NCBI GenBank assembly: GCA_965242685.1
Contig: OZ251487.1
Span: 417,199-481,198 of the forward strand
DNA length: 64,000 bases
Origin: Gammaproteobacteria bacterium
Lineage (GTDB): Bacteria; Pseudomonadota; Gammaproteobacteria; UBA4575
Direction of reading: 5' to 3'
The notes beneath the pieces are model-generated. The model worked only from the letters and a program-made list of their open reading frames with translations, did no database searches and was not told the DNA's origin. The translations under genes were made by a program, and so were the position numbers. Shown here piece by piece: positions 6,296 to 37,802 of this stretch. The stretch's first letter is position 1, and every line of letters starts with the position of its first letter.

Positions 6296-6454
6296 GCTGA
6301 ACCTTGCTTTAGTGTTTGTATGTATTTTTTCGTGAAGTTCGCTATATTTATCTCATTTTTGCGTCTTTATACTGGTTGCCGCCATGTTACGCGACTTTTC
6401 GCAACGTAGTTAAAATAGCGATGCCCTTTTGATTTATTATTTCCATTACTAATT

Positions 6455-7492
6455 TTGAGTGCAAGGAAAATACTCGTTATAGGGCCTGCCTGGATCGGTG
6501 ACATGGTCATGTCACAGAGCTTGTTCATGGCGCTGAAACACCGGTACCCGAACTGTGCCGTCGACGTCGTTGCACCGGCATGGTCTTCCCCCGTGCTTGC
6601 GCGTATGCCCGAGGTGCGGCGTATTATCGAAGTTGATATCGCACATGGTGAATTACGACTTGCTACACGCATACGGCTTGGTAGAAGTCTTCGCGGGCAA
6701 TACGACCAAGCCATCATTTTACCAAGATCATACAAATCTGCGTTGGTTCCATATTTTGCGAGGATTCCGAAACGTACCGCATATCGCGGTGAAATGCGTT
6801 ATGGCATTGTCAACGACGTGCGACGATCCGGCGGGAAAGCGACCGGTACTAAAGCCGTACAGCAATACGTAAATTTAAGCGAGCCATCCTCCGCGCACCG
6901 GGTAAAATTTTCGGATATTCATTTGCCGAGGCTGCGAGTGGATGAGAACAAGCGGCGTCAGGCGGCGTCAAGATTGGCCGTCAACGAGAAGACGCCTTCA
7001 ATTGCATTGATGCCGGGTGCCGAATTCGGCCCGTCAAAGCGTTGGCCTGCGGGATACTTCGGCGAATTAGCCTCCATGTTCATACGAGACGGCTTTGCCG
7101 TGTACATTTTCGGCTCATCCAGAGACCATGCAATCGGCGAAGAAGTCATCGCGTCCTCTTGCGGCGGTGGTGCGGTCAACTTGTGCGGAAAAACGAGTCT
7201 GGAAGAAGCGATTGATTTAATTTCACTGACGAAAGTCGCCGTCACCAACGATTCCGGATTGATGCACGTTGCGGCGGCGGTGGGGTGCCCCGTGGTTGCC
7301 GTCTATGGCTCAATTACGCCTGATTACACCCCGCCTTTGACTAAATTCGCACGGATTCGGTACTTGAACCTGGAGTGCAGTCCTTGTTGGCGGAAGCAGT
7401 GCCCCTATGGGCACTATAACTGCCTGCGTAACTTGACGGTCGGCAGCGTCTATCAAAGTGCGGGCGAGCTACTCGGCCGTGTCTCACCTTAG
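6455..7492 (+). CDS. waaF: ADP-heptose:LPS heptosyltransferase II
   Basis: N-terminus KILVIGPAWIGDMVMSQSLFMALKHRYP is the classic RfaF/WaaF signature; 345 aa. Confidence 0.85.
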   Translation: MSARKILVIGPAWIGDMVMSQSLFMALKHRYPNCAVDVVAPAWSSPVLARMPEVRRIIEVDIAHGELRLATRIRLGRSLRGQYDQAIILPRSYKSALVPYFARIPKRTAYRGEMRYGIVNDVRRSGGKATGTKAVQQYVNLSEPSSAHRVKFSDIHLPRLRVDENKRRQAASRLAVNEKTPSIALMPGAEFGPSKRWPAGYFGELASMFIRDGFAVYIFGSSRDHAIGEEVIASSCGGGAVNLCGKTSLEEAIDLISLTKVAVTNDSGLMHVAAAVGCPVVAVYGSITPDYTPPLTKFARIRYLNLECSPCWRKQCPYGHYNCLRNLTVGSVYQSAGELLGRVSP

Positions 7493-8880
7493 AGGAAGTA
7501 GTCGTTGCGGTCAAAACTGGAATCGAGTGACGCCAGTTTTTCGGGATGATTGATCAGCTCCTCGATAAACCAGTTTGCATGGTTATATAGACACGTGACA
7601 TCTTTACATTCCCGTTTGGCATCAAATGCCTCGATCAATCGCAACGTATTCTTTTGTGTCGCCTTTAGAGCCTTGTCCGTTGCATAGGCGTGTTTTCCCC
7701 CCAATAATGCCTGCGGCACGTGGCGGTATACCGGGCAATTGAACACGCCCAGCGGGCTTAATACCTGCCTGAAGTATTGCATGTGGCAGTTATGCGGCTG
7801 CTCGGTGTAATTCATGTAAGTGCCGTTTTCAAGTACCCGAAGATTGGTACTTTCGACCACCGCAAAGTTTTCGTCCTCGCACTCTTTGGCCTGATTTATC
7901 GCACTACGAATTTTCGCCATTACCGACTCGACGTGTCGCTGTTCCTTGTCTATTCCGACTACTTCGGCATTATTGATTTTCGCCCTTGTCAAAAAAGGCT
8001 TGTAAGAAATGTAATCGAACCGGTGTTGCTTGGCCAGATTCGCCGCCGTAACGATCTCATCTATGTTTTCAATAATTTTTGTGTCGTTGGTTTCGCAGTC
8101 TTTCCATACGATGATAAAGCTGAAACCTATCATAAAATCGGAGTTCAACTCCTTGATCTCGGGGATGTGTTTACAGATCCATTCCAGCGTACATTTTTTA
8201 CTGCCCGGCTTGTGCATGGCACGGAAAGTCTGGTTCGTTCCCGAGTCCAGCGACAGGCGCACCCAGTCTTTCTCTTGTAACACGTCCGCTACGTTGCCGA
8301 TCTTTTTCATCATGCTGCCGTTGGTGACGACTCCCACTTGTACATCCATCCGTTTCAGGTGGCGTACAACGTCTTCAAAACCCTGATACGCGGTCGGTTC
8401 GCCGCCGCCGATGATGATTACCGAACGCAATCCGTTTTTGACCAGGTGGCTGAGTGAATCCTTTAATAGTTCGTGGTCATAGTTGATCTTCTTGTTGAGA
8501 ATATCCATGTCTACGCAATGATCGCAGCGATAGTTGCAGGCGGTGGTGACGTCCAGGTTGATAGAGACGGGCGCGCTCGTCGGCGCGGTTTCCAGGGCCT
8601 CTTCGAACGATAGGGACTCCGCCGCAAATCCTTCGCGCCATTGTGCTTGCCAACGGACGTATTCCTTTAGCTTTTCAAGCACTTCGGGCTGAAGCAGCTT
8701 ACCCATGAAGTCATGCAACGGCGAAAGCTCGGTCTGCTTTTCTACCTGACGAACGGATGAGTTCACGTGCAGGGGAGGTGCCGATGAGCGGGCCGTTGCA
8801 TCGAGACCGCCTTTGGTAAAATCAATGAGCGGTGACAGTCTCATCAACACCTCACCGCTTTCGGAATGAATTTTTTCCAT
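7489..8880 (-). CDS. Radical SAM enzyme with Cys-containing C-terminal auxiliary domain (function unknown; possible sugar-modifying enzyme)
   Basis: 463 aa; canonical CX3CX2C cluster motif TTACNYRCDHC; glycine-rich SAM motif IIGGGEPT; extra Cys residues near C-terminus (HNCH..., FNCP...); embedded in LPS core locus. Confidence 0.75.
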   Translation of the reverse strand: MEKIHSESGEVLMRLSPLIDFTKGGLDATARSSAPPLHVNSSVRQVEKQTELSPLHDFMGKLLQPEVLEKLKEYVRWQAQWREGFAAESLSFEEALETAPTSAPVSINLDVTTACNYRCDHCVDMDILNKKINYDHELLKDSLSHLVKNGLRSVIIIGGGEPTAYQGFEDVVRHLKRMDVQVGVVTNGSMMKKIGNVADVLQEKDWVRLSLDSGTNQTFRAMHKPGSKKCTLEWICKHIPEIKELNSDFMIGFSFIIVWKDCETNDTKIIENIDEIVTAANLAKQHRFDYISYKPFLTRAKINNAEVVGIDKEQRHVESVMAKIRSAINQAKECEDENFAVVESTNLRVLENGTYMNYTEQPHNCHMQYFRQVLSPLGVFNCPVYRHVPQALLGGKHAYATDKALKATQKNTLRLIEAFDAKRECKDVTCLYNHANWFIEELINHPEKLASLDSSFDRNDYFL

Positions 8881-8884
8881 GATG

Positions 8885-9835
8885 CTAGTCCAGATTTACG
8901 GCCTGATACAGTTGTGCCAGATGTGTCATCCCGTCAATCAGTGCAACTTCATCGGATGAAGCACCAGAATAAATCGAACCTATAAAGTTTTTTACCGAGC
9001 ACACTAGCGGGTCAACGACAGGTAATTGTTTATCTGGTGAATGTAATGCTATCAGATAATCGGAACGCTTGATATGCCGGTTTACCCGTTTACCATTGAT
9101 TGCGTATGCGGCGGGTTTGGGATACGTATTTGTCGGTTTTAACGACAGGCCAACCTCGGCATTTCCCCGTGCGTGCAGATAGTTAAACTTGACGTCAAGC
9201 TCGTTATCTCCCCCGTTTGCACGGTAGTCAAACGCAACGTCCTGAATGCGCCCTGCACCGATGAGTGCATACAACATGCTCAGCAAATGCGGCGCGGCGT
9301 CAACGATCATCATTTTATCCCTGCTTTGGGGGGACAACCACATGGAAAACGTTTCCACGGTCTGCACGACGGGATACATTTCATAGTAAGTGGGCAGGGT
9401 GAAAGGCCATTGTGTATTGAGCTGTAAAACCCGGTTCCTGGCTTTGCAGAGTTTGACCAGTTTGACCGTTTTTTCGGTAACTCGTTTCAACTCGCCGGCC
9501 GTTTCTATAGGGGGCCACCAAAGCGGTTTTTCACAAAATACGTGGCGGCCTGCCTGAATTGCAGCTTCCAGGTACTTCAAGTGCGAGGCAACCGGACTGC
9601 TGATGACGACGATATCGACGGGCCGTTTTTTTAATGACTCCTCCAGACTTTCAAAGGCGTGACAGTCAATTCCATAATCGGCGTTTAATCGCATTGCGGC
9701 ATCGGCGGCAGATTTCTGCGTACTGCTTACCACTGCGGTAATAGTCGCCCCAGACTGATGAAAGGCCTTGGCGATGAAAGGGCCGGTACCTTGGCGGCTG
9801 CGCCCCGGCCCGATGATGGCAACGTGTAAAGACAT
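8885..9835 (-). CDS. Gfo/Idh/MocA-family NAD(P)-dependent oxidoreductase
   Basis: 316 aa; N-terminal Rossmann VAIIGPGRSRQG..., EKPLWWP motif characteristic of Gfo/Idh/MocA family; 5-nt gap to radical SAM gene suggests operon. Confidence 0.8.
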   Translation of the reverse strand: MSLHVAIIGPGRSRQGTGPFIAKAFHQSGATITAVVSSTQKSAADAAMRLNADYGIDCHAFESLEESLKKRPVDIVVISSPVASHLKYLEAAIQAGRHVFCEKPLWWPPIETAGELKRVTEKTVKLVKLCKARNRVLQLNTQWPFTLPTYYEMYPVVQTVETFSMWLSPQSRDKMMIVDAAPHLLSMLYALIGAGRIQDVAFDYRANGGDNELDVKFNYLHARGNAEVGLSLKPTNTYPKPAAYAINGKRVNRHIKRSDYLIALHSPDKQLPVVDPLVCSVKNFIGSIYSGASSDEVALIDGMTHLAQLYQAVNLD

Positions 9836-10031: not shown

Positions 10032-10973
10032 GTGCCCGGCTCAGACATGAAGGTTGCGGGTAAATTCAGCCTGGATGAGCAGGTGGTGCTTTTTCATGGA
10101 AGCTGCCTTGACCTGTTGCAGGACATGCCGGATAAGTCCATGCAATTAATTATCACGTCTCCCCCTTATAACATAGGAAAAGAATATGAAAAAAGGCTGG
10201 ATATCGAGACTTACGTCAAGCAGCAGGAGGAAGTGATAAAAGGTTGTGTCCGTGTCCTTGCCGACACAGGGAGTATCTGTTGGCAGGTCGGAAATTATGT
10301 AAAAAATGCAGCGATAATTCCTCTTGATACGATCTTATATCCGATATTTCGTGATCTGAACCTTGTGATGAGGAACAGAATTGTTTGGGGCTTCGAACAT
10401 GGATTGCATTGTAGTAGAAGATTTTCCGGTCGTTACGAAACCATTATCTGGTTTACAAAGCAGACGGGAGAATATGTATTCAATCTTGACTCGGTACGAG
10501 TGCCACAGAAATATCCCGCTAAAAAATACTTCAAAGGGCCTAAGGCGGGGCAGTATTCCTGTAACCCTCTTGGTAAAAACCCGGGCGACGTTTGGGACAT
10601 TCCCAATGTCAAAAGTAATCATGTAGAGAAAACGGAGCATCCGTGTCAATTTCCTGTAGAGTTGATTGAGCGACTTGTCCTATCAATGACGAATGAAGGG
10701 GATTGGGTGTTTGACCCATTTCTTGGAGTGGGCACCTCTATCATCGCGGCGGTGAGGCACGATAGAAAGGCCGTGGGGTCGGAGGCAGTAAAAAAGTATG
10801 TTGATATAGCTCGAGATAGGATACAAAAAGCAATCGATGGAACACTGCCGACAAGACCGATGAATAAGCCGAAATATGACCCGAAATATGATCCTAATCT
10901 GCATAAAAATAGCCTGACCGTATCCCCATGGAAAAAAAAGAAAGGAGATATTGAACAGTTAAAGCTGGTTTAA
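10032..10973 (+). CDS. Beta-class N4/N6 DNA methyltransferase (DNA methylase N-4/N-6 domain), apparently orphan
   Basis: 313 aa; motif IV IITSPPYNIGKEY precedes motif I FDPFLGVGTS (beta-class order); AT-rich relative to neighbours; no adjacent endonuclease ORF. Confidence 0.8.
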   Translation: MPGSDMKVAGKFSLDEQVVLFHGSCLDLLQDMPDKSMQLIITSPPYNIGKEYEKRLDIETYVKQQEEVIKGCVRVLADTGSICWQVGNYVKNAAIIPLDTILYPIFRDLNLVMRNRIVWGFEHGLHCSRRFSGRYETIIWFTKQTGEYVFNLDSVRVPQKYPAKKYFKGPKAGQYSCNPLGKNPGDVWDIPNVKSNHVEKTEHPCQFPVELIERLVLSMTNEGDWVFDPFLGVGTSIIAAVRHDRKAVGSEAVKKYVDIARDRIQKAIDGTLPTRPMNKPKYDPKYDPNLHKNSLTVSPWKKKKGDIEQLKLV

Positions 10974-22985: not shown

Positions 22986-23079
22986 GCCCCTTCATTGGGG
23001 GTGATCTCCAAACACATCAAATATCGCATTGCGCACAACGTCGGGTGTAGTCCCCCTTCATTGGGGGTGATCTCCAAAC
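22986..23079 (+). CRISPR. Minimal CRISPR array: two 28-nt direct repeats (27/28 identical) flanking one 38-nt spacer
   Basis: Repeat 1 at 22986-23013 is gccccttcattgggggtgatctccaaac. Repeat 2 at 23052-23079 is cccccttcattgggggtgatctccaaac. Spacer at 23014-23051 is acatcaaatatcgcattgcgcacaacgtcgggtgtagt. The repeat has a CCCC-loop-GGGG hairpin and an AAAC 3' end like Cas13a direct repeats. The array lies 35 nt beyond the stop of the Cas13-like gene. Confidence 0.6.
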
Positions 23080-23114: not shown

Positions 23115-26100
23115 CTATCTTTTCCTTTGTGAAGGATTGTGCTTGTGTATATGACTCTTCCTCCGGTTTTGGTATTTTCTTTTTTGTGTTCCCTCAGCTT
23201 TTCCTCTGTTCTGATTTTTTCTGCCTGGAGTTTTATCGGGCAATTGAGCCTCGCCACCGAACAGATCGGCTACCATCTCGATGTACTTTTCACCGTGCAG
23301 GTCTTCTTTGACTTTATTGCCCAAGTGAGTGGCTTGCCTGGTCTTAACTGTTGCTCCTGTAAGTCGGTGTCCTTTCATCTCCCATTCCAGGACAAGTCCT
23401 TCGCGTGCCAGCATTTCCTTGATTGACCGGGTCACCGCGTTTTTCAGTTTGCGGTCGTAGGCCATCAGCTTGCGGGTGTCGTTGACGGCCTCGGTCAGGT
23501 TCAGGTCGGGTTTGTTGCTTTGCAACATGTTGAAGTGCATCAGCTTGTTGCGAATGGAGCGGGGATAGTCTTCACATCTATCATCCAGAAAATGTTTACC
23601 AAATACCTGTTTTAATTGTTCGAAAATCTTTTTTGCATCTCCTTTTTGCGATTTTCTAAGTGTATTGATCGCCTCAACAATTTGGCCATCCTTGAGATTC
23701 TTACGTCCATTTGAATTGAACACGTCATCCGGCCTTTTCCCTGAAAGGCTTATCAGCGCGAGCATTACAAAATACAGGTCGCGTTCCCACAGGCCGGCAT
23801 AGTCGGTCAGCCGTCCCAATACCCGCATTAGCAGGCGATGCAGACGCACGTGGTTGTTGAGACGGACGTGTGCCGCAAAATGCCGATGCTTTTCTATAGT
23901 TTTAAGTGTTTGGCGATAGTCTTTTTCTTTTTCTTTGGAAAATCTCTTTTTAACCCATTCATCATGCAATTTTTCCCGTTTTTTCTGTTGTTCGGCAATT
24001 TTATTTTCCGATTCGTCCGATTCGTCCAGCTTAAGCTTATTCACGTTTTCGGCTGTAATCGGGTGTTTCCGGAAAATTGGCATCAATGGTTTGAGGTCGC
24101 CGAACCGCCAGAGCTCCCGCAGGCCGCGCCAGGGTACCAGCTGTTTTTTTGTATTTGTATCCGATTCGGGGCAGGCACGGCGAAAAAGCTCCTCGGACTT
24201 GAACAGGTCTTTGAGTTCGCTGTCATAAATATTGATTGTCTCGTTCCCCTCAAACTTGGCGTCGTGCATATCGAGATAAAGACTGAATAGTTGTGCGAGG
24301 GGCTTGACCACCTCATCTTTCTCATCTTTGATAGATGATTTCCGTACAAGGATCGACCATTTGGAAAGCTGGTGCCGTAATTGGGCAATCGCATCGACGG
24401 GCACCAGATGAATGAGGAAGTAAAGAACGGCCTGCCAGTCTATTGCTTTGGTTTCATCTGGTGGTACTTTCTTCAGTGCTTTATCCAGAGAGCCGCACTC
24501 GTTTTTAAGCTCGTCCGTTACCCAGTTTAATTGGTTCTCTTTCAGGTAAGCCTTGAAGGCCTGTGCCACCACGTCGCACCGCAGGTCATCGAGGTATTTG
24601 GCCTGCTGGCGGGCCTTGTCAGCGTCGCTATCGTAGCCACGCTGCACGCGCAGTTCGGACGCTGTGCGAGCGGCAAGTTGATCGATGAAATCGGCAATCC
24701 CTTGGCCTTCTTCCAGGTGGACCTGGTCGGTAGCCTTGGCGACGGCAAGTTCGTCCTTATTTAATTTCTTTGCATCCTCAGTAGCGCGCTTCACGGCACG
24801 TTTAATCCATTGATTCAGGGCTTGTTTCGTTTGTTTTTCCAGCCATGCGGGGAAAGCGCGTTCGTATATTGCCTTTGCAGTGACGTACCGACACAGTTTG
24901 TCGGGCTGATCTTCAAGTTTGTCCCGCTTACCGGGCGGCGGCAGATGCAGGAGGTAAGGTTTCTTGCTCCAAGCGTTTTCCGCACGGGCGAGGACGCGAT
25001 TGAAGCGGGGCAACGGTGACAGCGATGTTTCTGCATTGACGATGGCCTTGATCAGCGCGTCGATCTTGCTTTGGTCGTAATACTTCTCAACCTGTGCCGC
25101 TTTAAGGTCTTTAATCAATTGTTCGTTGCGCTTGGTAAAATCGTGTTTCAGGAGTTTGTGTGTGGCGTCAATGGTGGCAGGGAAGTTGTTAAGGTTGTTG
25201 GTTAATGCCTCGATAAAGCGGTCACGTCCCTTGAAGTGAAACGCCGCGTGACGCAGTTCAGCCCACCCGTTCAGTGCCAGTTTCAGCACTTGATTTTTAA
25301 AGTCTTCATCACCCTTGAAGTAGTCATTCCGTTTGCCGAACAGGAGCGGCAGCTTCGGCAGCTTTTTTAGATAGGCCGATTCACAAAAATTCCCATCTGT
25401 TACTCCATCATTTTTGATATTGAGCAATATGTCCTCTTTAATGCGATTGTTCGGGTCTGCCCAGTCCTTCAACGTCCGTGCACCGAGCGCAATCGTATAA
25501 CGCCACACGCGCACGAAGGCCTCGTTGCGTTTGATTTCGGCTTGCCCTTCACTGGTTCGATAGTGGCTGTTTGTGATTGCCTCGGATTCGGGCCAGTGGT
25601 CGATGGCATGGCCGTTTTTGCCGGCTTCGTAATGGATGATTCTTCCCAGACGCACCAGGCCGTTGAGATCACGATTGCGCACCTTGTTTTTGACCAGTTG
25701 GAACAGTTTGTTCATGTCTTGCGGTAGAATGCGCGCCACGTTTTTCTTGTTATGTTTCTTAAGGATGCGGGTATAGGTATCCTTAATAGCGGCATGAAGC
25801 GCAAATAGTCTAGGATAGAGATCACGGGCTTCGGTAACGGCGAGCACTTCTCCGTCATCGCCTTTGAACAGCTCCCCATATTGCCCGTACAGAATCGGGG
25901 CAACATCGCGTACCGAGAACTTGCCTTTCTTACCTTCAGCCGCTCGATAAATCTGGCCTGCTACGTCACCGGCCTCTTTATATGCTTTTTCATCCTGGTC
26001 TGACCAGTCATATTCACCACCCGAAAATCCCGTCGGCAACGCCATTACGTTTTTGGTAATGCTTTCCGCCCTGGCCGCTATCAGCCCCTTACTCTTATTG

Positions 26101-26606
26101 GGTTGGCTAGGCTCTTTCCGATATTCTTTTTCATACAGGTGTTCGTATATCTTTCCCGCGATTTCTTCGGCCTCTTTGTCACCGATTTCGGCAGGTTTCT
26201 TGTCACCGACGAAGCGTCCATACCAACGGCCTTTTGGAGCTGGAGAATTCTTACAGTTTTCTTTCGGGTAAGGATGAATCTTTGACCACCACAACTTCCT
26301 GAGTTTTTCAAGCTCGTCGAAATTGTCCGCATTCTTTACCTTTAACAGACCGTTCTTTATCAAATAGCACCAGACGGCGTTACCGAGTGTCTCGCGCAGC
26401 TTGCGCTGTTCGGCGGAAGGTTTGCCGTTCCCACGGGGCTTGGCTGCGATCTTGTCAATGATGGATATCCATTGCTTAATGACGAGTTCAGGGTGTTCTT
26501 TTGCAAATTCTGCAACGTCCTTTGCATCCTTGTGGCCGGGATTTGGGCGGATTTTCCGTTTTCCTGTTGGGGTCTCGCTTCGACCGTATGGCTTGATAAT
26601 CAACAT
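23115..26606 (-). CDS. cas13a: Cas13a-like type VI CRISPR RNA-guided RNase (two HEPN R-x4-H motifs)
   Basis: 1163 aa. HEPN1 is ELRHAAFHF (R452/H457), encoded about 25236-25253. HEPN2 is SIRNKLMHF (R1019/H1024), encoded about 23535-23552. Size and motif spacing are close to LbuCas13a (1159 aa; R472/H477, R1048/H1053). The protein is Lys-rich and the gene AT-rich. A CRISPR-like mini-array is adjacent. Confidence 0.72.
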   Translation of the reverse strand: MLIIKPYGRSETPTGKRKIRPNPGHKDAKDVAEFAKEHPELVIKQWISIIDKIAAKPRGNGKPSAEQRKLRETLGNAVWCYLIKNGLLKVKNADNFDELEKLRKLWWSKIHPYPKENCKNSPAPKGRWYGRFVGDKKPAEIGDKEAEEIAGKIYEHLYEKEYRKEPSQPNKSKGLIAARAESITKNVMALPTGFSGGEYDWSDQDEKAYKEAGDVAGQIYRAAEGKKGKFSVRDVAPILYGQYGELFKGDDGEVLAVTEARDLYPRLFALHAAIKDTYTRILKKHNKKNVARILPQDMNKLFQLVKNKVRNRDLNGLVRLGRIIHYEAGKNGHAIDHWPESEAITNSHYRTSEGQAEIKRNEAFVRVWRYTIALGARTLKDWADPNNRIKEDILLNIKNDGVTDGNFCESAYLKKLPKLPLLFGKRNDYFKGDEDFKNQVLKLALNGWAELRHAAFHFKGRDRFIEALTNNLNNFPATIDATHKLLKHDFTKRNEQLIKDLKAAQVEKYYDQSKIDALIKAIVNAETSLSPLPRFNRVLARAENAWSKKPYLLHLPPPGKRDKLEDQPDKLCRYVTAKAIYERAFPAWLEKQTKQALNQWIKRAVKRATEDAKKLNKDELAVAKATDQVHLEEGQGIADFIDQLAARTASELRVQRGYDSDADKARQQAKYLDDLRCDVVAQAFKAYLKENQLNWVTDELKNECGSLDKALKKVPPDETKAIDWQAVLYFLIHLVPVDAIAQLRHQLSKWSILVRKSSIKDEKDEVVKPLAQLFSLYLDMHDAKFEGNETINIYDSELKDLFKSEELFRRACPESDTNTKKQLVPWRGLRELWRFGDLKPLMPIFRKHPITAENVNKLKLDESDESENKIAEQQKKREKLHDEWVKKRFSKEKEKDYRQTLKTIEKHRHFAAHVRLNNHVRLHRLLMRVLGRLTDYAGLWERDLYFVMLALISLSGKRPDDVFNSNGRKNLKDGQIVEAINTLRKSQKGDAKKIFEQLKQVFGKHFLDDRCEDYPRSIRNKLMHFNMLQSNKPDLNLTEAVNDTRKLMAYDRKLKNAVTRSIKEMLAREGLVLEWEMKGHRLTGATVKTRQATHLGNKVKEDLHGEKYIEMVADLFGGEAQLPDKTPGRKNQNRGKAEGTQKRKYQNRRKSHIHKHNPSQRKR

Positions 26607-26740
26607 ATGGTAATTATATACTAACTACGCTACAATATAAAAGCGTAATTTGCCGAGTAGACGGGTAGTGGAGAGATACCTGGACGGCAGTCATTTGAAA
26701 CTGACAGGTAAAAAATAATTATACGGGGGCACGTAACCCA

Positions 26741-27304
26741 ATGCGACAAGGTTTGTATCGAAGCATCGTGGTTGATCCGCCTTGGGATCAAGGCAAAACG
26801 GGGATTCGTTCCGCTCGTCCCAATCAGGGCGTTGATCTGGATTACCCTACGCTGACGCAAAACGAGATTTTAGAGATTGTTCGGCTGGATGAATGGGCTG
26901 CCGAGAATGCGTTTCTTTGGCTGTGGGCGACAAACAGCAGATCGCGCTCAAGCAAGAAGCCTATCCTTCAGCAGGCGTTTGAATTGATGGATGCTTGGGG
27001 GTTTCGATACTACACCATGCTTACATGGGATAAAAAAACCGGGCCTTGCCCATTCGGCCCTTATCAGATAACGACCGAACATTGTTTATTTGGCTATCGG
27101 GGGCAATGCAGGTTTGACAAACAATCTCTTGGCAAGATGAAAACCTGCTTTCATGCCCCCGTCACTCGGCACAGTGAAAAACCCGCGCTGTTTTACGATA
27201 ACGTCCGTAAATACTTTCCCTCCCCCAAGATTGACGTTTTTTCAAGAAGAACACATAGCGGCTTTGAAGGTTGGGGTTGGGAAGCCGAACAGGACGTTGC
27301 ATAG
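26741..27304 (+). CDS. MT-A70-family adenine N6-methyltransferase (DPPW motif)
   Basis: 187 aa; catalytic motif VVDPPWDQG near N-terminus; family size typical of small bacterial MT-A70 proteins; divergent from cas13a-like gene with 134-nt shared intergenic region. Confidence 0.8.
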   Translation: MRQGLYRSIVVDPPWDQGKTGIRSARPNQGVDLDYPTLTQNEILEIVRLDEWAAENAFLWLWATNSRSRSSKKPILQQAFELMDAWGFRYYTMLTWDKKTGPCPFGPYQITTEHCLFGYRGQCRFDKQSLGKMKTCFHAPVTRHSEKPALFYDNVRKYFPSPKIDVFSRRTHSGFEGWGWEAEQDVA

Positions 27305-27522
27305 TGCCGACAAAAGCCAATCAGTTATCTGGAGCAGACTGGCTGAAAAACTCGTTCAGTATATGGAGAGGTATACCTAAAGACCCAATCGGTAGAAAGC
27401 GTCATCCCGTCAAGTGCCTGAACCGCCGTTAGCCCCAAGCCACGAGGCATTGAATTGGCATATTGAAAATATCATGGGACGTTAGCGCTCGTTCAGCCCG
27501 AAACCAGCAGAAAAACCGGCGT

Positions 27523-28752
27523 TCAACCGAAAAACCAATACCCGATCAGGATGGCCGCGATGACGCCGACCAGATCGGCGAACAGTCCGCAGCCGATGGC
27601 GTGACGCACGCGGCGTATCCCCACGCTGCCAAAGTAGATGGCCAACACGTAAAACGTAGTTTCGGTGCTGCCTTGTACGATGGCCGCGACGTTGGCGGCG
27701 AACGAGTCTACGCCGTGGGTGCTCATGGTCTCCAGCATCATCGCGCGTGCCCCGCTACCGGAAAACGGGCGCATCAAGGCGGTGGGCAAGGCGGCGACAA
27801 ACTCGGTATCGAGACCGAACGCCGCGACTACCTTTGCAATGACCGTAAGCACCTGATCGAGTACCAGACTGGCGCGCAATACGCCTATCGCCACCAACAT
27901 GGCGACCAGATAGGGGATGATCTTCACGGCGACTTCAAAGCCCTGTTTGGCGCCTTCGATAAAGGCCTCGTAGACGTTGACCTTGCGCGCGAAGCCCAGC
28001 GTCAGGAAGGCCACGATCACCAGCAGCAATAGCAGACTGCCCAGCAGACTGGAGCGCTCGGTCAGGGCGTCCGCCTCGCCGGTCAGCAGGAAAACCAGCA
28101 ACAGCCCCATCAACGACATGAGCCCCAGCAGATAGACGAGCATTGTCTTGTTGAACAGCTTCAGCCCCTGAAGGTAGGCCGTCAGCAGCAGACCGGCAAG
28201 CGTCGAGGCGGAGGTGGCCAACAGGATCGGTATAAACACCGCCGCCGGGTCACTAGAGCCTTGCTGCGCGCGAAACAGAAAGATGGTGACCGGCAACAGG
28301 GTTACCGACGATGTATTCAGCACCAGAAACAGGATTTGTGCGTTGCTGGCGGTATCCTTTTGCGGATTGAGGTCTTGCAGATCCTGCATCGCCTTCAGCC
28401 CCAACGGAGTGGCGGCGTTGTCCAGGCCAAGCATGTTGGCCGCCATGTTCATGGTGACCGAACCGATGGCCGGATGATTGGCGGGTACTTCCGGCATCAG
28501 TTGTTTGAACAACGGGCGGAATATCTTGGTAAGTAACTCGATAAAACCGGCGCGTTCGGCGATGGCAAAAAATCCCAGCCACAGACACAGCACGCCGATC
28601 AGTCCAAGTGCGATTTCAACGCTCAGCGCCGCCATGTCGAACGTCGCCTGAACGACCTGTGCAAACAGCGCGTTGTTGTCGTGCACCAGGGCGTGATACA
28701 CGCAGCTGAGGAATGCGGCAATAAAAAAGCCGAACCACAAGTAATTAAGCAT
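27523..28752 (-). CDS. Nucleoside-recognition (Gate) domain inner-membrane protein, SpmA/SpmB-like fusion
   Basis: 409 aa polytopic membrane protein; two Gate-like halves (LSVEIALGLIGVLCLWLGFFAIAERAG..., ...AIYFGSVGIRRVRHAIGCGLFADLVGVIAAILIGYWFF). Confidence 0.65.
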   Translation of the reverse strand: MLNYLWFGFFIAAFLSCVYHALVHDNNALFAQVVQATFDMAALSVEIALGLIGVLCLWLGFFAIAERAGFIELLTKIFRPLFKQLMPEVPANHPAIGSVTMNMAANMLGLDNAATPLGLKAMQDLQDLNPQKDTASNAQILFLVLNTSSVTLLPVTIFLFRAQQGSSDPAAVFIPILLATSASTLAGLLLTAYLQGLKLFNKTMLVYLLGLMSLMGLLLVFLLTGEADALTERSSLLGSLLLLLVIVAFLTLGFARKVNVYEAFIEGAKQGFEVAVKIIPYLVAMLVAIGVLRASLVLDQVLTVIAKVVAAFGLDTEFVAALPTALMRPFSGSGARAMMLETMSTHGVDSFAANVAAIVQGSTETTFYVLAIYFGSVGIRRVRHAIGCGLFADLVGVIAAILIGYWFFG

Positions 28753-30052: not shown

Positions 30053-32290
30053 ATGGATCTAACCGACCGCGACAAGCAAGAGATTATCCGTCATCTTGAG
30101 GCGGACCAACCGTTGCCCGACCGGTATCGGTTTTTACTGTTTGACGACAAGCGGCAGGCGGAATTGGTATGGAACGGCAAGACCAACGAAGTATGTAACG
30201 TAGTATTGCCGTTTCAAACCATAGAACACGTCGACGAGCCGCGTGTCGAGAGTCCCGATGATCTCCCTTTAATGGACGACCTATTCGCCGTAGACGCACG
30301 CGGCCGACAGCTAAAGGGCTGGGAAAACAAGCTGATATGGGGCGACAACAGGCTGGTACTGTCCAGTCTCAAGGGCGGCGCCTTACGCGAGGAAATTGAA
30401 AAGCAGGGCGGCATCAAGCTCATCTACATCGACCCGCCGTTTGATGTCGGGGCGGACTTTTCCATGGACATTGAAATCGGCGGCGGAAACTTCACCAAGG
30501 CGCCGAGCGTATTGGAGGAGATCGTCTATCGGGATACCTGGGGGCAAGGTGCGGACTCGTTCATCGCCATGTTGTACGAGCGGTTGATCTTGATGCGCGA
30601 CCTACTGGCCGAAGACGGGAGTATTTACGTCCACTGCGATTATAGGATGAACGGCTATATCCGCCTGGTGTTGGATGAAGTGTTTGGGAAGGGTGCGGGT
30701 GCTGGCTATGTAAATGAGATTGTTTGGCAGGGTGCGATTGGGGAGACATCATCTAAAAACAAAAAATTTATCAAGTCCCACGAAACCATTTATTTATACC
30801 GCAAAAGCGGAGTGCTGTGGAATGAGATATTTCAAACATATAGCGAGGCCAGCCAAAGTTTATATCGTTACTCCGATGACAAAGGGCGTTACCGAATCGG
30901 ACCGACAAATAAACCCGGTACGGGGGGCTATTTCTACGATTTAGGTTACGGGGAAATATGCCCGCAAAGGGGATATAGGATGCCGATTGAGACCGCTCTC
31001 GCTTGGATTGAAAGTGGTGAGTTGATTATTGAAAAAGGGAAAGTACCCGGACGTAAGTTGTATATGGGTGAGGGGGTCAGATGTCGTGACGTTTGGGTGG
31101 ATATAAGAGCGACGCAAGGCAATGAATATTTGCGTTACCCCACCCAAAAACCCGAAGCCCTGTTGGAACGGATCATCAAGGCATCCAGCAACGAGGGTGA
31201 TGTGGTGGCGGACTTCTTTTGCGGTTCGGGCACGTTGGCGGCGGTGGCGGAGAAGCTGGGGCGCAAATGGATCTGCGGAGACTTGGGCAAGTTTGCCGTA
31301 CACACGACCCGCAAGCGGATGATCGGCGTCCAGCGCCGGTTGAAGGCCGAGGGCAAGGACTATCGCGCCTTTGAAGTCCTGAATCTCGGCAAATATGAAC
31401 GACAGCACTACATCGGCGTCAATGCCGGCTTGCATGAAGCGGGGCGCGCGACCCAACAGACGGCGAAAGAACGTGCCTTTGTCGATCTAATTTTGCGCGC
31501 GTACAAGGCCGAGCGGGTAGACAATTTCTCATGCTTTCACGGTAAGAAACAGGGCAGGCTGGTGACCGTGGGGCCGGTTAACCTCCCAATATCCCGTCAG
31601 TTTGTCGAGGAGATCGTTCAAGAATGTAAGAAAAAACACATCACAAAGGTAGACCTGTTGGGTTTCGAGTTTGAGATGGGCCTGTTTCCGCAGCGATTGA
31701 ACGAGGCAAAAGAACAGGGCATCGACCTTGTACCCAAATACATCCCCCGCGATGTATTCGACAAACGCGCCGTGGAGAGAGACCAGGTAAGGTTCCACGA
31801 CGTGGCGTTTATCGAGATCAAAACCCACGTGAAGGACGGAACGGTAGCGGTGGAACTCACCGATTTCTCCGTCTACTACCATCAGGGTTCGGTAGAAAAT
31901 GCCGAACAAACCCTGAGAAACAGAGGCAGTAAAGTGGTGGTGAAAGCGGGGCGGGTGGTGAAGGTATCCAAGGATCAACACGGCGCGATCACCCGTGAGG
32001 TGCTGACGAAAAAGTGGACGGATTGGGTAGACTACTGGTCGGTGGACTTCGACTACGAAAGCAAACGGGAAATCATCCGCGAACGGAACCAGGCGGGCGA
32101 ATGGGTAGAACGATGGACGGGCGACTACGTGTTTGAAAACGAGTGGCAAAGCTTCCGCACCCGCCAAGATCGGTCGCTGGAATGGACCACGCCCCCGCAC
32201 AAATGCCCGCCGGGAAACTACAAGATCGCCGTCAAGGTGGTTGACGTATTCGGTAACGACACCATGACGGTGGCGGAGGTAAAGGTGTGA
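30053..32290 (+). CDS. mod: Type III restriction-modification system methyltransferase subunit (Mod), adenine-specific
   Basis: 745 aa; catalytic motif IV YIDPPFDVGADF followed by motif I FFCGSGTLAAVAEKLG (beta-class order typical of Type III Mod); variable target-recognition middle region. Confidence 0.85.
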   Translation: MDLTDRDKQEIIRHLEADQPLPDRYRFLLFDDKRQAELVWNGKTNEVCNVVLPFQTIEHVDEPRVESPDDLPLMDDLFAVDARGRQLKGWENKLIWGDNRLVLSSLKGGALREEIEKQGGIKLIYIDPPFDVGADFSMDIEIGGGNFTKAPSVLEEIVYRDTWGQGADSFIAMLYERLILMRDLLAEDGSIYVHCDYRMNGYIRLVLDEVFGKGAGAGYVNEIVWQGAIGETSSKNKKFIKSHETIYLYRKSGVLWNEIFQTYSEASQSLYRYSDDKGRYRIGPTNKPGTGGYFYDLGYGEICPQRGYRMPIETALAWIESGELIIEKGKVPGRKLYMGEGVRCRDVWVDIRATQGNEYLRYPTQKPEALLERIIKASSNEGDVVADFFCGSGTLAAVAEKLGRKWICGDLGKFAVHTTRKRMIGVQRRLKAEGKDYRAFEVLNLGKYERQHYIGVNAGLHEAGRATQQTAKERAFVDLILRAYKAERVDNFSCFHGKKQGRLVTVGPVNLPISRQFVEEIVQECKKKHITKVDLLGFEFEMGLFPQRLNEAKEQGIDLVPKYIPRDVFDKRAVERDQVRFHDVAFIEIKTHVKDGTVAVELTDFSVYYHQGSVENAEQTLRNRGSKVVVKAGRVVKVSKDQHGAITREVLTKKWTDWVDYWSVDFDYESKREIIRERNQAGEWVERWTGDYVFENEWQSFRTRQDRSLEWTTPPHKCPPGNYKIAVKVVDVFGNDTMTVAEVKV

Positions 32291-33576
32291 AAACAAACAC
32301 GATACAACAGATTGAAGAACAGGTAAATCAAGTGACAGAAGCCTTGAAGGGCTTTGTTCTTCGTCGGCATGAAGAGGATCGCTATGGCAAGGAAGATGAG
32401 TACACGGCTCAATCCTTGAAGGCTGATATAAAGGCAATCCTCACGGACATACGTGGCTTGGTAAAAGCGCATAACAAGTTCGTGAGGCTGTCGACTTTTG
32501 TAGAAAGAGATCTGATACGTGATTCTCTGCAAAATATGTCTAGTTCACTAAATTCAGAAAATTATTCTAATGCTGCCCATTATCTGGAAAAAATAAAGGA
32601 TATTATTCGCAGTTATAACGTAAGAGGTTCATCGGAATCTGAGGAAGTTCTTAAGGAGAGACTTGCTCAGATCAATAGTAAATATACGGACGCCGAAGAA
32701 AATATCGATGAGATCAAAAGGGTCAAAGAAACAGCCGAGCAACAGGCGCAGCAGCTTCAATCCATAAAAGAACAGCTTGAGTTCATTGACGGCAGAATTT
32801 ACGAGTCACGAGAAAAAGCCGATCAAATCGAAAAGTTGCAGACTCAATCTCAGAGTAATAGCGATGATATACATAGTGTCTTTACATCCGCAAAAAGTCG
32901 CGAAGAAATTATCAACAGCTTTGTTCAACGGGTTGAAGAGAGACAAAAACAGTTAGATACGCAGGAACAATCCACCGCTGCGTATCAAGAGAAGCTGGAG
33001 TCGTTTCAGGAAGCGCATGAAGAAAAACTTGAAGCAGCAGAGAAGCTGATAGAAGAGGCGCGGGCGGCTCTTGAACTTACGACTGCGGCAGGGGTCAGTG
33101 CGGCATTCACTGCACGCTACAATGAGGAAAAGGAAAGGGACCAGGAGATGTTGGATCGTTGGTTGAGAGGAGCACTTTTATTTATGAGCATCGCTATAGG
33201 AATGGGGATCTGGGTGGTATTGGGCAATAAGGATATCGGGCTTGGCCTGGCGATATCTCGCATAACCATTATACCGGTCGTACTTTCCGGTGCCTGGTTT
33301 TGTGCCGCACAATATGTGAGGTATCGGAACATACGAGAGGACTATGGCTATAAAGCCGTTTTGTCCAAGTCCATGATAGCTTTCATGGATCACTTGCCTG
33401 AAGATGTAAAAAGGGATTATCTGAATACGGTTCTGAAGGAAATCCACAAGAATCCTCTGCGTAAAAGATACGATGATTCAGATAGGAAAAATATTAGGAC
33501 ACCAGACGATGCGCGGGTAGGCACTTCCGGGTCATCAGATGATTCAGATAGAAAAAATACTGGGGCATCAGATTAA
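32287..33576 (+). CDS. Coiled-coil protein with two C-terminal transmembrane helices, inserted between mod and res (possible accessory defense/abortive-infection effector)
   Basis: 429 aa; about 280 aa heptad-rich charged N-region (EEQ.., KEQLEFIDGRIYESREKADQIEKLQ), then LLFMSIAIGMGIWVVLG and ITIIPVVLSGAWFCAAQYV hydrophobic helices; start overlaps mod stop (GTGTGA); C-terminal DDSDRKN motif duplicated. Confidence 0.6.
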   Translation: MKTNTIQQIEEQVNQVTEALKGFVLRRHEEDRYGKEDEYTAQSLKADIKAILTDIRGLVKAHNKFVRLSTFVERDLIRDSLQNMSSSLNSENYSNAAHYLEKIKDIIRSYNVRGSSESEEVLKERLAQINSKYTDAEENIDEIKRVKETAEQQAQQLQSIKEQLEFIDGRIYESREKADQIEKLQTQSQSNSDDIHSVFTSAKSREEIINSFVQRVEERQKQLDTQEQSTAAYQEKLESFQEAHEEKLEAAEKLIEEARAALELTTAAGVSAAFTARYNEEKERDQEMLDRWLRGALLFMSIAIGMGIWVVLGNKDIGLGLAISRITIIPVVLSGAWFCAAQYVRYRNIREDYGYKAVLSKSMIAFMDHLPEDVKRDYLNTVLKEIHKNPLRKRYDDSDRKNIRTPDDARVGTSGSSDDSDRKNTGASD

Positions 33577-33706: not shown

Positions 33707-36376
33707 ATGGCGCTCCACCCCAAATTTCCTGATTCTCCCCACGCCGTTCTCGATCCTGAAGTTCGCTGGTTTCCCGCCGATGAGACGGTGCGCGAGCAGA
33801 CGATGGACAAGTTGATGCCGCCACTGGTGGCGGAACTGCGGCGCAAGGTAAAGGAATTTCGAGACGCCGGCTATGCGGGCGCAAGCAATACCGGCAGGAG
33901 CTTGTTGAATTGGTGGTTCAAGGAATCGCACCCACAGCCACAATCGGACGGCGGCACGACGGAGTTTCGGTATTACTTCGCCCAGCGCGAGGCTATGGAG
34001 ACCATCATTTATCTGTATGAGGTGGCCGGGGCGAAGGATAAGTTTGACTTGATGCGCTTCGATTCCATCGGGCTGGTATCCACCGGCATGTTTGACGAGA
34101 CCTGGCGGCGTTACGTGATCAAGATGGCGACCGGCACCGGCAAGACTAAGATCATGAGTTTGGTGTTGGCGTGGAGCTTCTTCCACAAACTGTACGAAGA
34201 AGGCTCAAGCCTGTCGCGCAATTTTCTGATGATTGCTCCGAACATCATCGTGTTGGACCGCCTCTACAAAGATTTTCAGGGTTTGCGGATCTTCTATGAT
34301 GATCCGGTGATGCCCGACAACGGCTATGGAGGACAAAACTGGCGGGATGACTTTCAGCTAACGTTGCATTTGCAGGACGAGGTACAGGTGACGCACCCCG
34401 TGGGAAACATCTTTTTGACTAATGTCCATCGGGTTTATTGCGGCGAGGATATCCCGCCTTCGCCGGGAGACGAGAACACGATGGATTATTTTCTCGGCAC
34501 TCGTCCCGTCGGTGCGACCACCGATTCTAAAATAGACTTGGGAATGATCGTGCGCGACATTGACGAGTTGATGATCCTAAACGATGAGGCGCACCATATC
34601 CACGACGCGAAGCTCGCCTGGTTCAAGTCGGTTGAAGACATCCATAACCGGCTGCTGCAAAAGGGCGGCGAGTTGAGCTTGCAGGTGGACGTGACCGCAA
34701 CGCCGAAACACAATAACGGCGCGATCTTTGTGCAAACGATAGCGGATTACCCGTTGGTGGAGGCGATCTCTCAGAACGTGGTCAAACATCCGGTGTTGCC
34801 GGATGCGCCAAGTCAGGCAAGGTTGGAGGAAAGACAGAGCACAAAATTCACCGAGAAATACGCCGATTATCTTGATTTGGGCGTGACTGAGTGGCGCAAG
34901 GCTTACGGTGAACATGAGAAGCTCGGCAAGAAAGCGATCCTGTTCGTGATGACGGATGACACGAAAAATTGTGATGAAGTTGCCGGGTATTTGGAGAGTC
35001 ACTATCCCGATTTGCAAGACGCGGTATTGACCATTCATACCAAGAACAACGGCGAGATTTCCGAAGTGTCTCACGGCAAGAAGAAAGAAGAGCTTGAGGA
35101 ACTTCGCAAACAGGCCAACGAGATTGATTCACTGAAGAATCCTTACAAGGCCATCGTGTCGGTGCTGATGCTCAAGGAGGGCTGGGACGTGCGCAACGTC
35201 ACTACTATCGTCGGCCTGCGGGCGTATTCGGCCAAGAGCAATATCCTACCGGAGCAGACGCTTGGCAGGGGGCTGCGCAAGATGTATCGGAATGACACTG
35301 AGGAGAAAGTGAGTGTGGTCGGTACCGATGCCTTCATGGAGTTTGTGGAAGGCATACAGGCGGAAGGGGTGGAACTGGAGCGCGAGGCTATGGGAGAAGG
35401 CACTAAGCCCAAGGCGCCGCTGGTGATAGAGGTTGATAGTGAAAAGGATCTGGATGCGCTGGATATTGAAATTCCGGTACTGACGCCTCGTTTATATCGG
35501 GAGTACAAAAACCTGGCCGATCTGAACCTTGAAACAATGGAGTTTAAAATGCTGGAATATCGGCAGTTTAACGAAGAACAGCAGCGCGAGATCGTCTTCA
35601 GGGACGTGACTACGGGCGAGGTGACGCATATCACCGTGCTGGACAGCGCGGGGGTGGGCGATTACCGCAGCGTCATCGGCTATTTTGCGCAGACCATGAT
35701 GAGGGAGCTACGACTGGTAAGTGGCTATGATGCTTTATACGGCAAGGTCAAGGCGTTTATTCGGGATCACCTGTTCGGCAAAACGGTTGCGCTGGAATCT
35801 GCCAATACGTTGAGAAATTTGTCGGAGATGGTAGCCACCAAGACGGTGCTTGAGACTTTCAAAAAGGCGATCAATCACCTGATGGTACGGGAAAGGGAGG
35901 GTGCGGAGATTCATGATTCCATCAAGCTACGCCAGATGCGCCCGTTCGTGATAAAAGAGCGACAGTATTTATCTCCCCGCAAGAGTGTATTTAACCGGAT
36001 TGTCGGCGACAGTCGGCTTGAACTGGAGTTTGCCAAGTTTTTGGAGCGATGCAATGACGTATCCGCGTATGCCAAAAATTATCTGGCGGTTCACTTCAAG
36101 CTGGATTACGTAAATGCGAGTGGCGAACTTACCAATTATTACCCTGATTTTGTCGTCAAGCTGACCGATGGCCGCATGGTCGTCGTCGAGACCAAAGGGC
36201 GCGAAGGACTGGACGTACCGCGAAAAGTGGCACGCTTGAGGCGGTGGTGTGAAGACGTCAACGCGGTGCAGGACGTGACATGGAGTTTCGTCTACGTGGA
36301 TGAGGAAGGGTTTCACAAGTATTCACCCAAGTCTTTCGCGGGACTTTTGGCCGGTTTTCGGGAGTATAAAGGGTGA
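33707..36376 (+). CDS. res: Type III restriction endonuclease subunit (Res), SF2 helicase plus PD-(D/E)xK nuclease
   Basis: 889 aa; helicase motif I MATGTGKTKIM, motif II LNDEAHHI (DEAH), motif VI region; C-terminal nuclease motif YPDFVVKLTDGRMVVVETKGRE. Confidence 0.85.
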   Translation: MALHPKFPDSPHAVLDPEVRWFPADETVREQTMDKLMPPLVAELRRKVKEFRDAGYAGASNTGRSLLNWWFKESHPQPQSDGGTTEFRYYFAQREAMETIIYLYEVAGAKDKFDLMRFDSIGLVSTGMFDETWRRYVIKMATGTGKTKIMSLVLAWSFFHKLYEEGSSLSRNFLMIAPNIIVLDRLYKDFQGLRIFYDDPVMPDNGYGGQNWRDDFQLTLHLQDEVQVTHPVGNIFLTNVHRVYCGEDIPPSPGDENTMDYFLGTRPVGATTDSKIDLGMIVRDIDELMILNDEAHHIHDAKLAWFKSVEDIHNRLLQKGGELSLQVDVTATPKHNNGAIFVQTIADYPLVEAISQNVVKHPVLPDAPSQARLEERQSTKFTEKYADYLDLGVTEWRKAYGEHEKLGKKAILFVMTDDTKNCDEVAGYLESHYPDLQDAVLTIHTKNNGEISEVSHGKKKEELEELRKQANEIDSLKNPYKAIVSVLMLKEGWDVRNVTTIVGLRAYSAKSNILPEQTLGRGLRKMYRNDTEEKVSVVGTDAFMEFVEGIQAEGVELEREAMGEGTKPKAPLVIEVDSEKDLDALDIEIPVLTPRLYREYKNLADLNLETMEFKMLEYRQFNEEQQREIVFRDVTTGEVTHITVLDSAGVGDYRSVIGYFAQTMMRELRLVSGYDALYGKVKAFIRDHLFGKTVALESANTLRNLSEMVATKTVLETFKKAINHLMVREREGAEIHDSIKLRQMRPFVIKERQYLSPRKSVFNRIVGDSRLELEFAKFLERCNDVSAYAKNYLAVHFKLDYVNASGELTNYYPDFVVKLTDGRMVVVETKGREGLDVPRKVARLRRWCEDVNAVQDVTWSFVYVDEEGFHKYSPKSFAGLLAGFREYKG

Positions 36377-36464: not shown

Positions 36465-37802
36465 ATGAATATCAAAAAACTGATCGTTGAGGATGTCCGC
36501 TGCTTTGCGGGCAGACAGGAACTTGAGATACGCCCCATCACTTTTCTAGTGGGTGAAAACAGTACCGGAAAGTCTACCGCCCTCGCTTGTTTGCAGACGC
36601 TGCTGGACATTATTAGTTTCCCGACTAATTTCCCGAGTAGGTTCCCGATTAGGTTCCCGTATGCCGACCTGGATTTCAATAATGAGCCTTATAATTTGGG
36701 GGCATTTGCCGATATTGTCAGGGTCTCAAGACCAAGGAAAGAGAGTTTTCGGTTGGGCGCTGAACTATTTCACGAGAAAGAAACTTTGGAATATTCTTTA
36801 ACTGTAACGGAAAGAGACGAAGGTTCTGAACCCATTATCCAGGAAATGAGGATGCTTTTTACCGATGGCAACGAAATTGTTCTCAAAAAAGATGATCGGC
36901 AAGTAAAAAATCAATCCAATAAAAGAAATTTTCAAATCCAGCATGTAGAAGGAGGTAAGAAAAAGTTTGTTATTATTCCACTAGGCTCACCTACTGTGAT
37001 GAGAGGTCTATTTATGGACTTATTTTATAGGGGATATAATGAGCAGGCTCTGACGTCAGAAGAAGAGGAACTACGTAATTTTTTGCAAAAGTACCGAACA
37101 GTACTTTCCTCTCGAAATTCTCCTAAGGCGCATAGTTTTGCACCGATTCGTTCCAAGCCGCAGCGTACGTATGACCCCATTAAAGAGGGTATCAGCCCTG
37201 AAGGCAGTGAAATGCCTATGGTGCTGATGAATATATCCGGAACGGGAGAGAAGCAATGGGGCACACTGAAAAAAAGACTGATCAGGTTTGGTAAATCTTC
37301 AGGCCTGTTTACGGATATCTATGTCAGAAAACTTGGAAAATCAAGCGACCCGTTCCAGCTACAGATCAAGGTCAGGGGGCCAAAGGTCAATCTTATAGAT
37401 GTGGGGTACGGCGTCAATCAAATCCTGCCTATTTTGGTACGTATATTTAACACTGAGAGAGAAGGTACAACTTTTTTAATGCAGCAACCGGAAGTGCATC
37501 TGCATCCCAAGGGTCAGGCGGAATTGTCTTCCCTATTGATCGAGATTGCTAAACAGCAGAAACAAAATTTTGTTATCGAGACGCACAGCGATTACATGGT
37601 TGACCGTGCGCGTATTGACATCAGGGACGGGAAAATACCGCCGGATGATGTCTCATTGATTTACTTTGAACCTTGCGGGGGATATGTCAAAGTGCACAAT
37701 ATCAAGTTTGATGAGCAGGGGAATTTAGAGGGTGCCCCGAACACCTTCCGACAGTTTTTTCTTGATGAGTCGGACAGATTTCTCGGGCTTGATGAAAGTT
37801 AG
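36465..37802 (+). CDS. AAA15/ABC-type ATPase (OLD/AbiEii-like ATP-binding protein)
   Basis: 445 aa; Walker A LVGENSTGKST; ABC-like Walker B/D-loop QQPEVHLHP and H-loop IIETHSDY; AT-rich. Confidence 0.8.
   Translation: MNIKKLIVEDVRCFAGRQELEIRPITFLVGENSTGKSTALACLQTLLDIISFPTNFPSRFPIRFPYADLDFNNEPYNLGAFADIVRVSRPRKESFRLGAELFHEKETLEYSLTVTERDEGSEPIIQEMRMLFTDGNEIVLKKDDRQVKNQSNKRNFQIQHVEGGKKKFVIIPLGSPTVMRGLFMDLFYRGYNEQALTSEEEELRNFLQKYRTVLSSRNSPKAHSFAPIRSKPQRTYDPIKEGISPEGSEMPMVLMNISGTGEKQWGTLKKRLIRFGKSSGLFTDIYVRKLGKSSDPFQLQIKVRGPKVNLIDVGYGVNQILPILVRIFNTEREGTTFLMQQPEVHLHPKGQAELSSLLIEIAKQQKQNFVIETHSDYMVDRARIDIRDGKIPPDDVSLIYFEPCGGYVKVHNIKFDEQGNLEGAPNTFRQFFLDESDRFLGLDES
36618..36665 (+). repeat. Tandem 12-nt repeat x4 inside ATPase gene (ttcccgactaat / ttcccgagtagg / ttcccgattagg / ttcccgtatgcc) encoding FPTN-FPSR-FPIR-FPYA
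   Basis: Directly visible in sequence; in-frame, preserves reading frame. Confidence 0.8.

Follow-up and report, generated by a model that had tools for sequence, protein, structure and literature searches.

In the window (the whole stretch of 64,000 nucleotides that was analysed), a gene encoding a small MT-A70 family methyltransferase, here called M1, stands back to back with a gene for the type VI-A CRISPR effector Cas13a, which raises the question of whether the two work together. A preliminary description of the locus proposed as its lead idea that the methylase is a novel accessory of Cas13a, and as its fallback that it is a separate restriction-modification (RM) remnant without a restriction partner. 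The locus, its flanks and two related loci were compared, and the evidence now points to the second answer: M1 is very probably the surviving first gene of a decayed three-gene RM operon, a defence-island neighbour of cas13a that has no specific function in type VI immunity. The features concerned are listed in Table 1.

Table 1. Coordinates of the methylase locus and neighbouring features in the window
Feature	Position	Strand	Remarks
Minimal CRISPR array, 2 repeats and 1 spacer, downstream of cas13a	22987-23079	-	Exact 27-nt direct repeat, 66-nt spacing
cas13a, type VI-A effector, 1163 aa	23115-26606	-	NCBIfam NF038188; apparently neighbour of M1, not partner
Divergent intergenic region, 134 nt	26607-26740		Each gene faced by one sigma-70-like match
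MT-A70 family methyltransferase gene (M1), 187 aa	26741-27304	+	PF05063; intact, now solitary
M2 remnant (N6_N4_Mtase), codons 1-35 only	27304-27408	+	Found by tblastn with M2 of the related contig L084
HNH restriction endonuclease remnant, last ~27 codons and stop	27409-27485	+	Frame differs from that of the M2 remnant
Gate-family (nucleoside recognition) membrane protein gene	27523-28752	-	Pfam PF07670, E 2.4e-21; core gene, right border of the islet
Type III RM, intact	mod 30053-32290, res 33707-36376		2.7 kb further on from the M1 locus

The product of M1, which begins MRQGLYRSIVVDPPWDQGKTG, matches the Pfam MT-A70 profile (PF05063) over profile positions 1-171 of 172 with an E-value of 3e-19 (70 bits, cut-off 23.9) and carries the motif VVDPPWDQG at residues 9-17, with DPPW at residues 12-15, so that the family assignment of the preliminary description is borne out. 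There are 496 homologues of M1 at E<=1e-3, the best 120 of which are 63-97% identical to it, and M1 is therefore a real gene. In an alignment of 30 MT-A70 family sequences, M1 included, D12-P13-P14-W15 is invariant, and M1 has the family residue in all 60 of the 60 invariant columns. The best PADLOC models for M1 are type II RM methylases (MTase_II, E 4.7e-32) and the best PHROG is phrog_359, 'DNA methyltransferase' (E 6.7e-35); NCBIfam has no model that covers it. Among the sequences of solved structures the best match is Tetrahymena MTA1, a DNA 6mA enzyme (E 1e-9), with METTL4 also close. An AlphaFold model of M1 (pLDDT 76, pTM 0.77) retrieved the catalytic domains of METTL3, MTA1 and METTL4 in Foldseek (E 1e-9 to 1e-7, probability 1.00, TM ~0.55-0.6), and the predicted structure thus confirms the Rossmann-like MT-A70 catalytic fold. 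Since RNA methylases (METTL3, and METTL4 as deposited) are found among these closest folds alongside MTA1, which acts on DNA, the fold by itself is compatible with either substrate.

MT-A70 is the sole Pfam domain in the 187 residues of M1, which has no evident target-recognition domain. Of the two marks of a METTL3-like RNA m6A writer, RNA-binding modules or an MT-A70 paralogue as obligate partner, M1 shows neither; in its ancestral operon (see below) it was paired with a DNA methylase of the N6_N4 type rather than with another MT-A70 protein. We infer that M1 is a small beta-class (MT-A70 type) DNA N6-adenine methyltransferase, as regards both the DNA substrate and the N6 of adenine as the methylated position. 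It shares DPPW with Tetrahymena MTA1 (MTA1c) and human METTL3-METTL14, at an identity of only about 20%, but those eukaryotic enzymes act as heterodimers and have additional partners or domains that bind DNA or RNA, none of which is present in M1. M1 is a member of the bacterial MT-A70 radiation described by Iyer et al. (PMC4738411), in which the eukaryotic MT-A70 clade falls inside a prokaryotic radiation that includes the BglII RM methylases.

The neighbour, which the preliminary description had called Cas13a-like, is a genuine Cas13a: it matches the NCBIfam equivalog NF038188 with an E-value of 4e-244, has 277 homologues at E<=1e-10, and has both of its HEPN R-x4-H motifs (R452/H457 and R1019/H1024) in invariant columns when 22 Cas13a relatives are aligned. 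Its C-terminal tail of ~47 aa (residues 1117-1163; window 23115-23255) is rich in lysine and arginine and lies beyond the NCBIfam model match. The downstream array, which Tandem Repeats Finder missed, reads GTTTGGAGATCACCCCCAATGAAGGGG on the minus strand, the 3' end of the second repeat being degenerate. The Cas13a proteins most closely related to that of the window (42-54% identity; L004-L023 and others) are found in MAGs labelled Binatia, Nitrospirales, Alphaproteobacteria, Poriferihabitaceae and Entotheonella. Both this Cas13a clade and the MT-A70 family are scattered over phyla, which suggests horizontal exchange in a shared habitat.

The geometry given previously, with M1 divergent from cas13a across 134 nt, proved exact. 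The intergenic region had also been called AT-rich, which holds relative to the window as a whole (59.7% against 49% A+T) but only to a moderate degree. The promoter-like sites within it, which are consensus matches only, lie at 26641 to 26613 on the minus strand (TTTATA-17-TATAAT) and at 26695-26722 on the plus strand.

The origin of M1 can be traced in a related 2.6-kb contig (L084), whose MT-A70 gene is 82% identical to M1 in amino acids and 77% in nucleotides. In blastn comparison, positions 90-131 of this contig align with window 26581-26622, the cas13a start region, and positions 2522-2592 with window 27530-27600, the 3' end of the Gate-family gene. The stretch of L084 bounded by the two anchors contains three tightly packed genes, encoding the MT-A70 protein (204-767), an N6_N4_Mtase of 268 aa (M2; 767-1573) and, at 1577-2518, an HNH_2 protein of 313 aa (R); PADLOC identifies the second methylase as MTase_II and the HNH_2 protein as an HNH type II restriction enzyme. 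M2 of L084 is circularly permuted with respect to type II methylase profiles, its residues 125-267 matching the profile start and residues 8-97 the profile end.

Both of the downstream genes have left remnants in the window. Residues 1-35 of L084 M2 match it in tblastn at 71% identity (E 3e-12); the GTG start of this remnant overlaps the MT-A70 stop (ATAGTG), and its frame reads VPTKANQLSGADWLKNSFSIWRGIPKDPIGRKRHP, followed directly by VKCLNRR and a stop at 27430-27432. The blastn alignment of the window with L084 likewise extends 96 nt beyond the MT-A70 stop. Residues 285-311 of the L084 HNH_2 protein match immediately afterwards at 70% identity (tblastn, E 1e-6), in a segment that blastn also aligns with L084 2443-2509 (E 5e-12) and whose translation ends in QVPEPPLAPSHEALNWHIENIMGR. 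Since both ends of the 1.7-kb M2-HNH gene pair are left and the ~1.58 kb between them is gone, the two loci differ by a deletion in the window and not by an insertion in L084; as judged from these alignments, the scar downstream of M1 is a deletion of about 1.58 kb. The locus thus no longer holds a complete type II RM system, only the last ~27 HNH codons being left of an endonuclease that is intact in the syntenic contig, and M1, its own reading frame intact and M2 and R reduced to a scar, is a solitary methylase. The fallback of the preliminary description, an RM remnant without a restriction partner, is directly borne out by the scar and by the syntenic operon that is still intact in L084.

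On its cas13a side L084 covers only about 116 nt before the contig ends, with the N-terminal reading frame disturbed. A gene called at 3-98 on its minus strand was considered as an in-frame Cas13a N-terminus and rejected; its MLIIK start sits in another frame, so that cas13a is there either divergent or disrupted.

A sister genome locus (L083), from a 1.76-Mb contig, has the same gene order as the window (TonB receptor, porin, bactofilin, RDD, cas13a, MT, Gate), with aligned segments at 74-95% nucleotide identity and most long blocks at 77-90%. It also shares the scar, resuming at the identical point on the HNH side and retaining 52 nt more of M2, and an insertion of 5 nt puts its MT-A70 gene out of frame after codon 29. 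Three states of decay are therefore observed: a full operon (L084), an orphan methylase (the window) and a dead methylase (L083). Because the right junction of the scar is shared, the most economical reading is that the deletion is older than the split between the window and L083. The scar (window 27305-27476 against L083 10319-10542) is 91-94% identical, above the third codon positions of the MT (85%) and Gate (80%) genes, and shows only 12 mismatches, fewer than would be expected of a neutral relic. The L083 cas13a (6071-9612) was called as two open reading frames (729 and 460 aa) with 59-68% protein identity to the Cas13a of the window, and its repeat array is longer, with about five repeats at 5675-6086.

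The history that would best account for these observations begins with a mobile type II RM cassette of M1, M2 (the N6_N4 methylase) and R (the HNH endonuclease), in which M1 was the first gene. In an ancestor this cassette would have formed a small islet of defence genes with cas13a on one side and the Gate-family membrane protein gene on the other. The deletion of ~1.58 kb would then have removed nearly all of M2 and R and turned M1 into an orphan methylase with a putative promoter of its own, presumably active by itself, and its adjacency to cas13a would reflect the clustering of genes in defence islands.

The cassette is also found at other sites. M1 and M2 are adjacent in three further loci (L121, L122 and L114), and in a fourth (L085) M2 is inverted. 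In L122 (1895-7797) an IS1595-type transposase is followed by the MT-A70 and N6_N4 methylase genes and by an R gene truncated to 143 aa; IS1595-like transposases are found near the methylase in four metagenomic loci. The L122 insert splits an MmeI-type RM gene, one RM cassette thus disrupting another. M2 of L121, where no gene had been called, was considered as a pseudogene, a notion rejected on finding its translation intact. In L001 and L002 the methylase adjoins a large helicase gene.

Whether the orphan is still functional is the point on which the preferred history meets its main competitor, namely that M1 is an inactive relic that methylates nothing without M2 and awaits loss. At only 187 aa, with no evident target-recognition domain, M1 may have needed M2 in order to bind DNA; this small size and the frameshift in the L083 copy make its activity uncertain, and RM genes are decaying all around it, as seen from the M2/R scar itself and from the loss of the type III mod and res genes in L083. 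Against the relic are the intact reading frame with every family-invariant residue and a dN/dS of 0.048 (dS 0.29) for the window against L083, where M2 and R are missing on both sides; the corresponding value against L084 is 0.027. By this codon-level measure M1 is under strong purifying selection (dN/dS about 0.05), and if the deletion predates the window/L083 split, that selection acted on the orphan. Closely related solitary copies of the MT-A70 gene also occur among housekeeping genes in L003, L119 and L120. The intact gene with all its invariant residues and the low dN/dS favour an active orphan over a dead relic, which we consider unlikely, and M1 is probably an active solitary DNA adenine methylase.

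The co-occurrence of MT-A70 and Cas13a genes was examined in both directions. In 79 Cas13a loci from species-representative genomes (flanks up to 10 kb each, 1.47 Mb in total), tblastn with the window methylase found no match at E<=1e-3, a family HMM run with no filters found none at E<=1, and a broader HMM of 73 sequences reached only E 0.45 at best. RM methylases of other, unrelated kinds are frequent in these loci (type ISP, Eco57I-like, HsdM and N6_N4), which is the usual defence-island picture. Conversely, Cas13a is present in one of 43 other MT-family loci, that of the sister L083, 16 of the 43 having at least 3.5 kb of upstream flank. Cas13a and MT-A70 are thus not recurrently co-located across independent lineages in these two sets, and a literature search for MT-A70 together with Cas13 returned eukaryotic m6A papers only.

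This distribution is what the preliminary description had itself said would count against its lead idea, and the idea fares accordingly. The two genes also lie side by side in L083 and, as far as can be seen, in L084, i.e. in all three genomes of the lineage, so that the comparison leaves room for a lineage-specific interaction; it is conceivable, though very unlikely, that in this lineage only the orphan M1 has been co-opted beside cas13a, for example by methylating the shared intergenic or promoter DNA or some other target, and so tunes or complements type VI immunity. Less credible still is a dedicated type VI-A accessory that marks self RNA or DNA or regulates Cas13a. The divergent arrangement across a short gap, the adjacency throughout the lineage, the purifying selection on M1 after the loss of its RM partners and a fold common to RNA m6A writers could all be cited for it, but, with no MT-A70 homologue in any of the 79 Cas13a loci and no Cas13a in 42 of the 43 other MT-family loci, the co-occurrence test brings it close to refuted. 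The ancestral operon partners of M1, a DNA methylase and an HNH endonuclease, also speak against such a role, as does the pattern of conservation between the two genes. Between the window and L083, nucleotide identity is 75% at the cas13a 5' end and 74% in the intergenic region, then 94% in MT, 91-94% in the scar and 91% in Gate; this step from 74-75% to 94% exactly at the MT start indicates that cas13a and MT do not evolve as one unit. In L084, alignment of the intergenic region is confined to the ~60 nt nearest cas13a, and the MT-proximal half is not conserved. Most improbable of all is that M1 is an anti-restriction methylase brought in by a phage or prophage, for its best PHROG is indeed a DNA methyltransferase, but 2.9 million viral contigs (IMG/VR) yielded one distant relative at 29% identity, phage genes flank neither M1 in the window nor its counterparts in related loci, and the mobility signal is that of an IS1595-type transposase, not a virus.

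As a survivor of RM decay, M1 is a further example of a well-known class, the orphan methylases of type II RM systems, whose genes likewise survive the loss of the endonuclease intact and under selection; in the window that loss has left a scar, and a relative retains the full operon. It differs from the better-known orphans in belonging to the MT-A70 family rather than to the Dam or CcrM lineages and in having been one of two methylases in its operon. With the prokaryotic MT-A70/Ime4-like methylases of the M.BglII radiation (PMC4738411), to which it is likened by family placement, it shares the MT-A70 domain, DPPW and an RM operon, but it is a minimal form of 187 aa, whose operon partners are an N6_N4 methylase of circularly permuted type and an HNH_2 nuclease.

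RM systems are known to co-occur with type VI systems and to aid recovery from Cas13-induced dormancy; in Listeria seeligeri, where Cas13a and RM systems cooperate, the RM loci were not closely linked to the CRISPR loci (Williams et al., bioRxiv 10.1101/2022.07.05.498905). Type VI-A and RM genes are present in one genome there as here, but the synergy requires the restriction endonuclease, whose gene has been deleted here. By analogy, an intact cassette such as that of L084, or the type III RM system of the window (Table 1), could fill such a generic role, and the ancestral intact RM system could have cooperated with Cas13a in the same way.

These results dispose of an appealing idea that proved false, that of a methylase serving Cas13a as an accessory, and leave the understanding of type VI CRISPR systems unchanged. 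What the locus does offer is a clean natural series of RM decay, from the intact operon of L084 through the orphan of the window to the frameshifted methylase of L083, and a small, very conserved MT-A70 cassette, sometimes linked to IS1595, that may interest those who catalogue RM systems and students of the bacterial roots of METTL3 and MTA1.

Several other features of these loci were noted. In about ten metagenomic loci (L087 3799-4494, L092 8548-9261 and eight others), a conserved open reading frame of ~230 aa lies ~50 nt downstream of MT-A70 homologues of 55-60% identity; it has no Pfam or PADLOC match and might, at a guess, encode an uncharacterised restriction nuclease partner. Between mod and res of the type III RM system of the window lies an unannotated open reading frame of 429 aa (32287-33576) with a weak LmuB-like match, and the system is followed by an AAA_15/AAA_21 ATPase gene (36465-37802; PDC-M55A and NsnB-like in PADLOC). 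Of the type III genes, L083 has kept only a 110-nt remnant of res, with the 429-aa gene and the ATPase gene retained and rearranged. A second solitary DNA methylase gene (N6_N4_Mtase, E 9e-53) is found in the window at 10032-10973, between two housekeeping genes, one for an oxidoreductase and one for ThiC.
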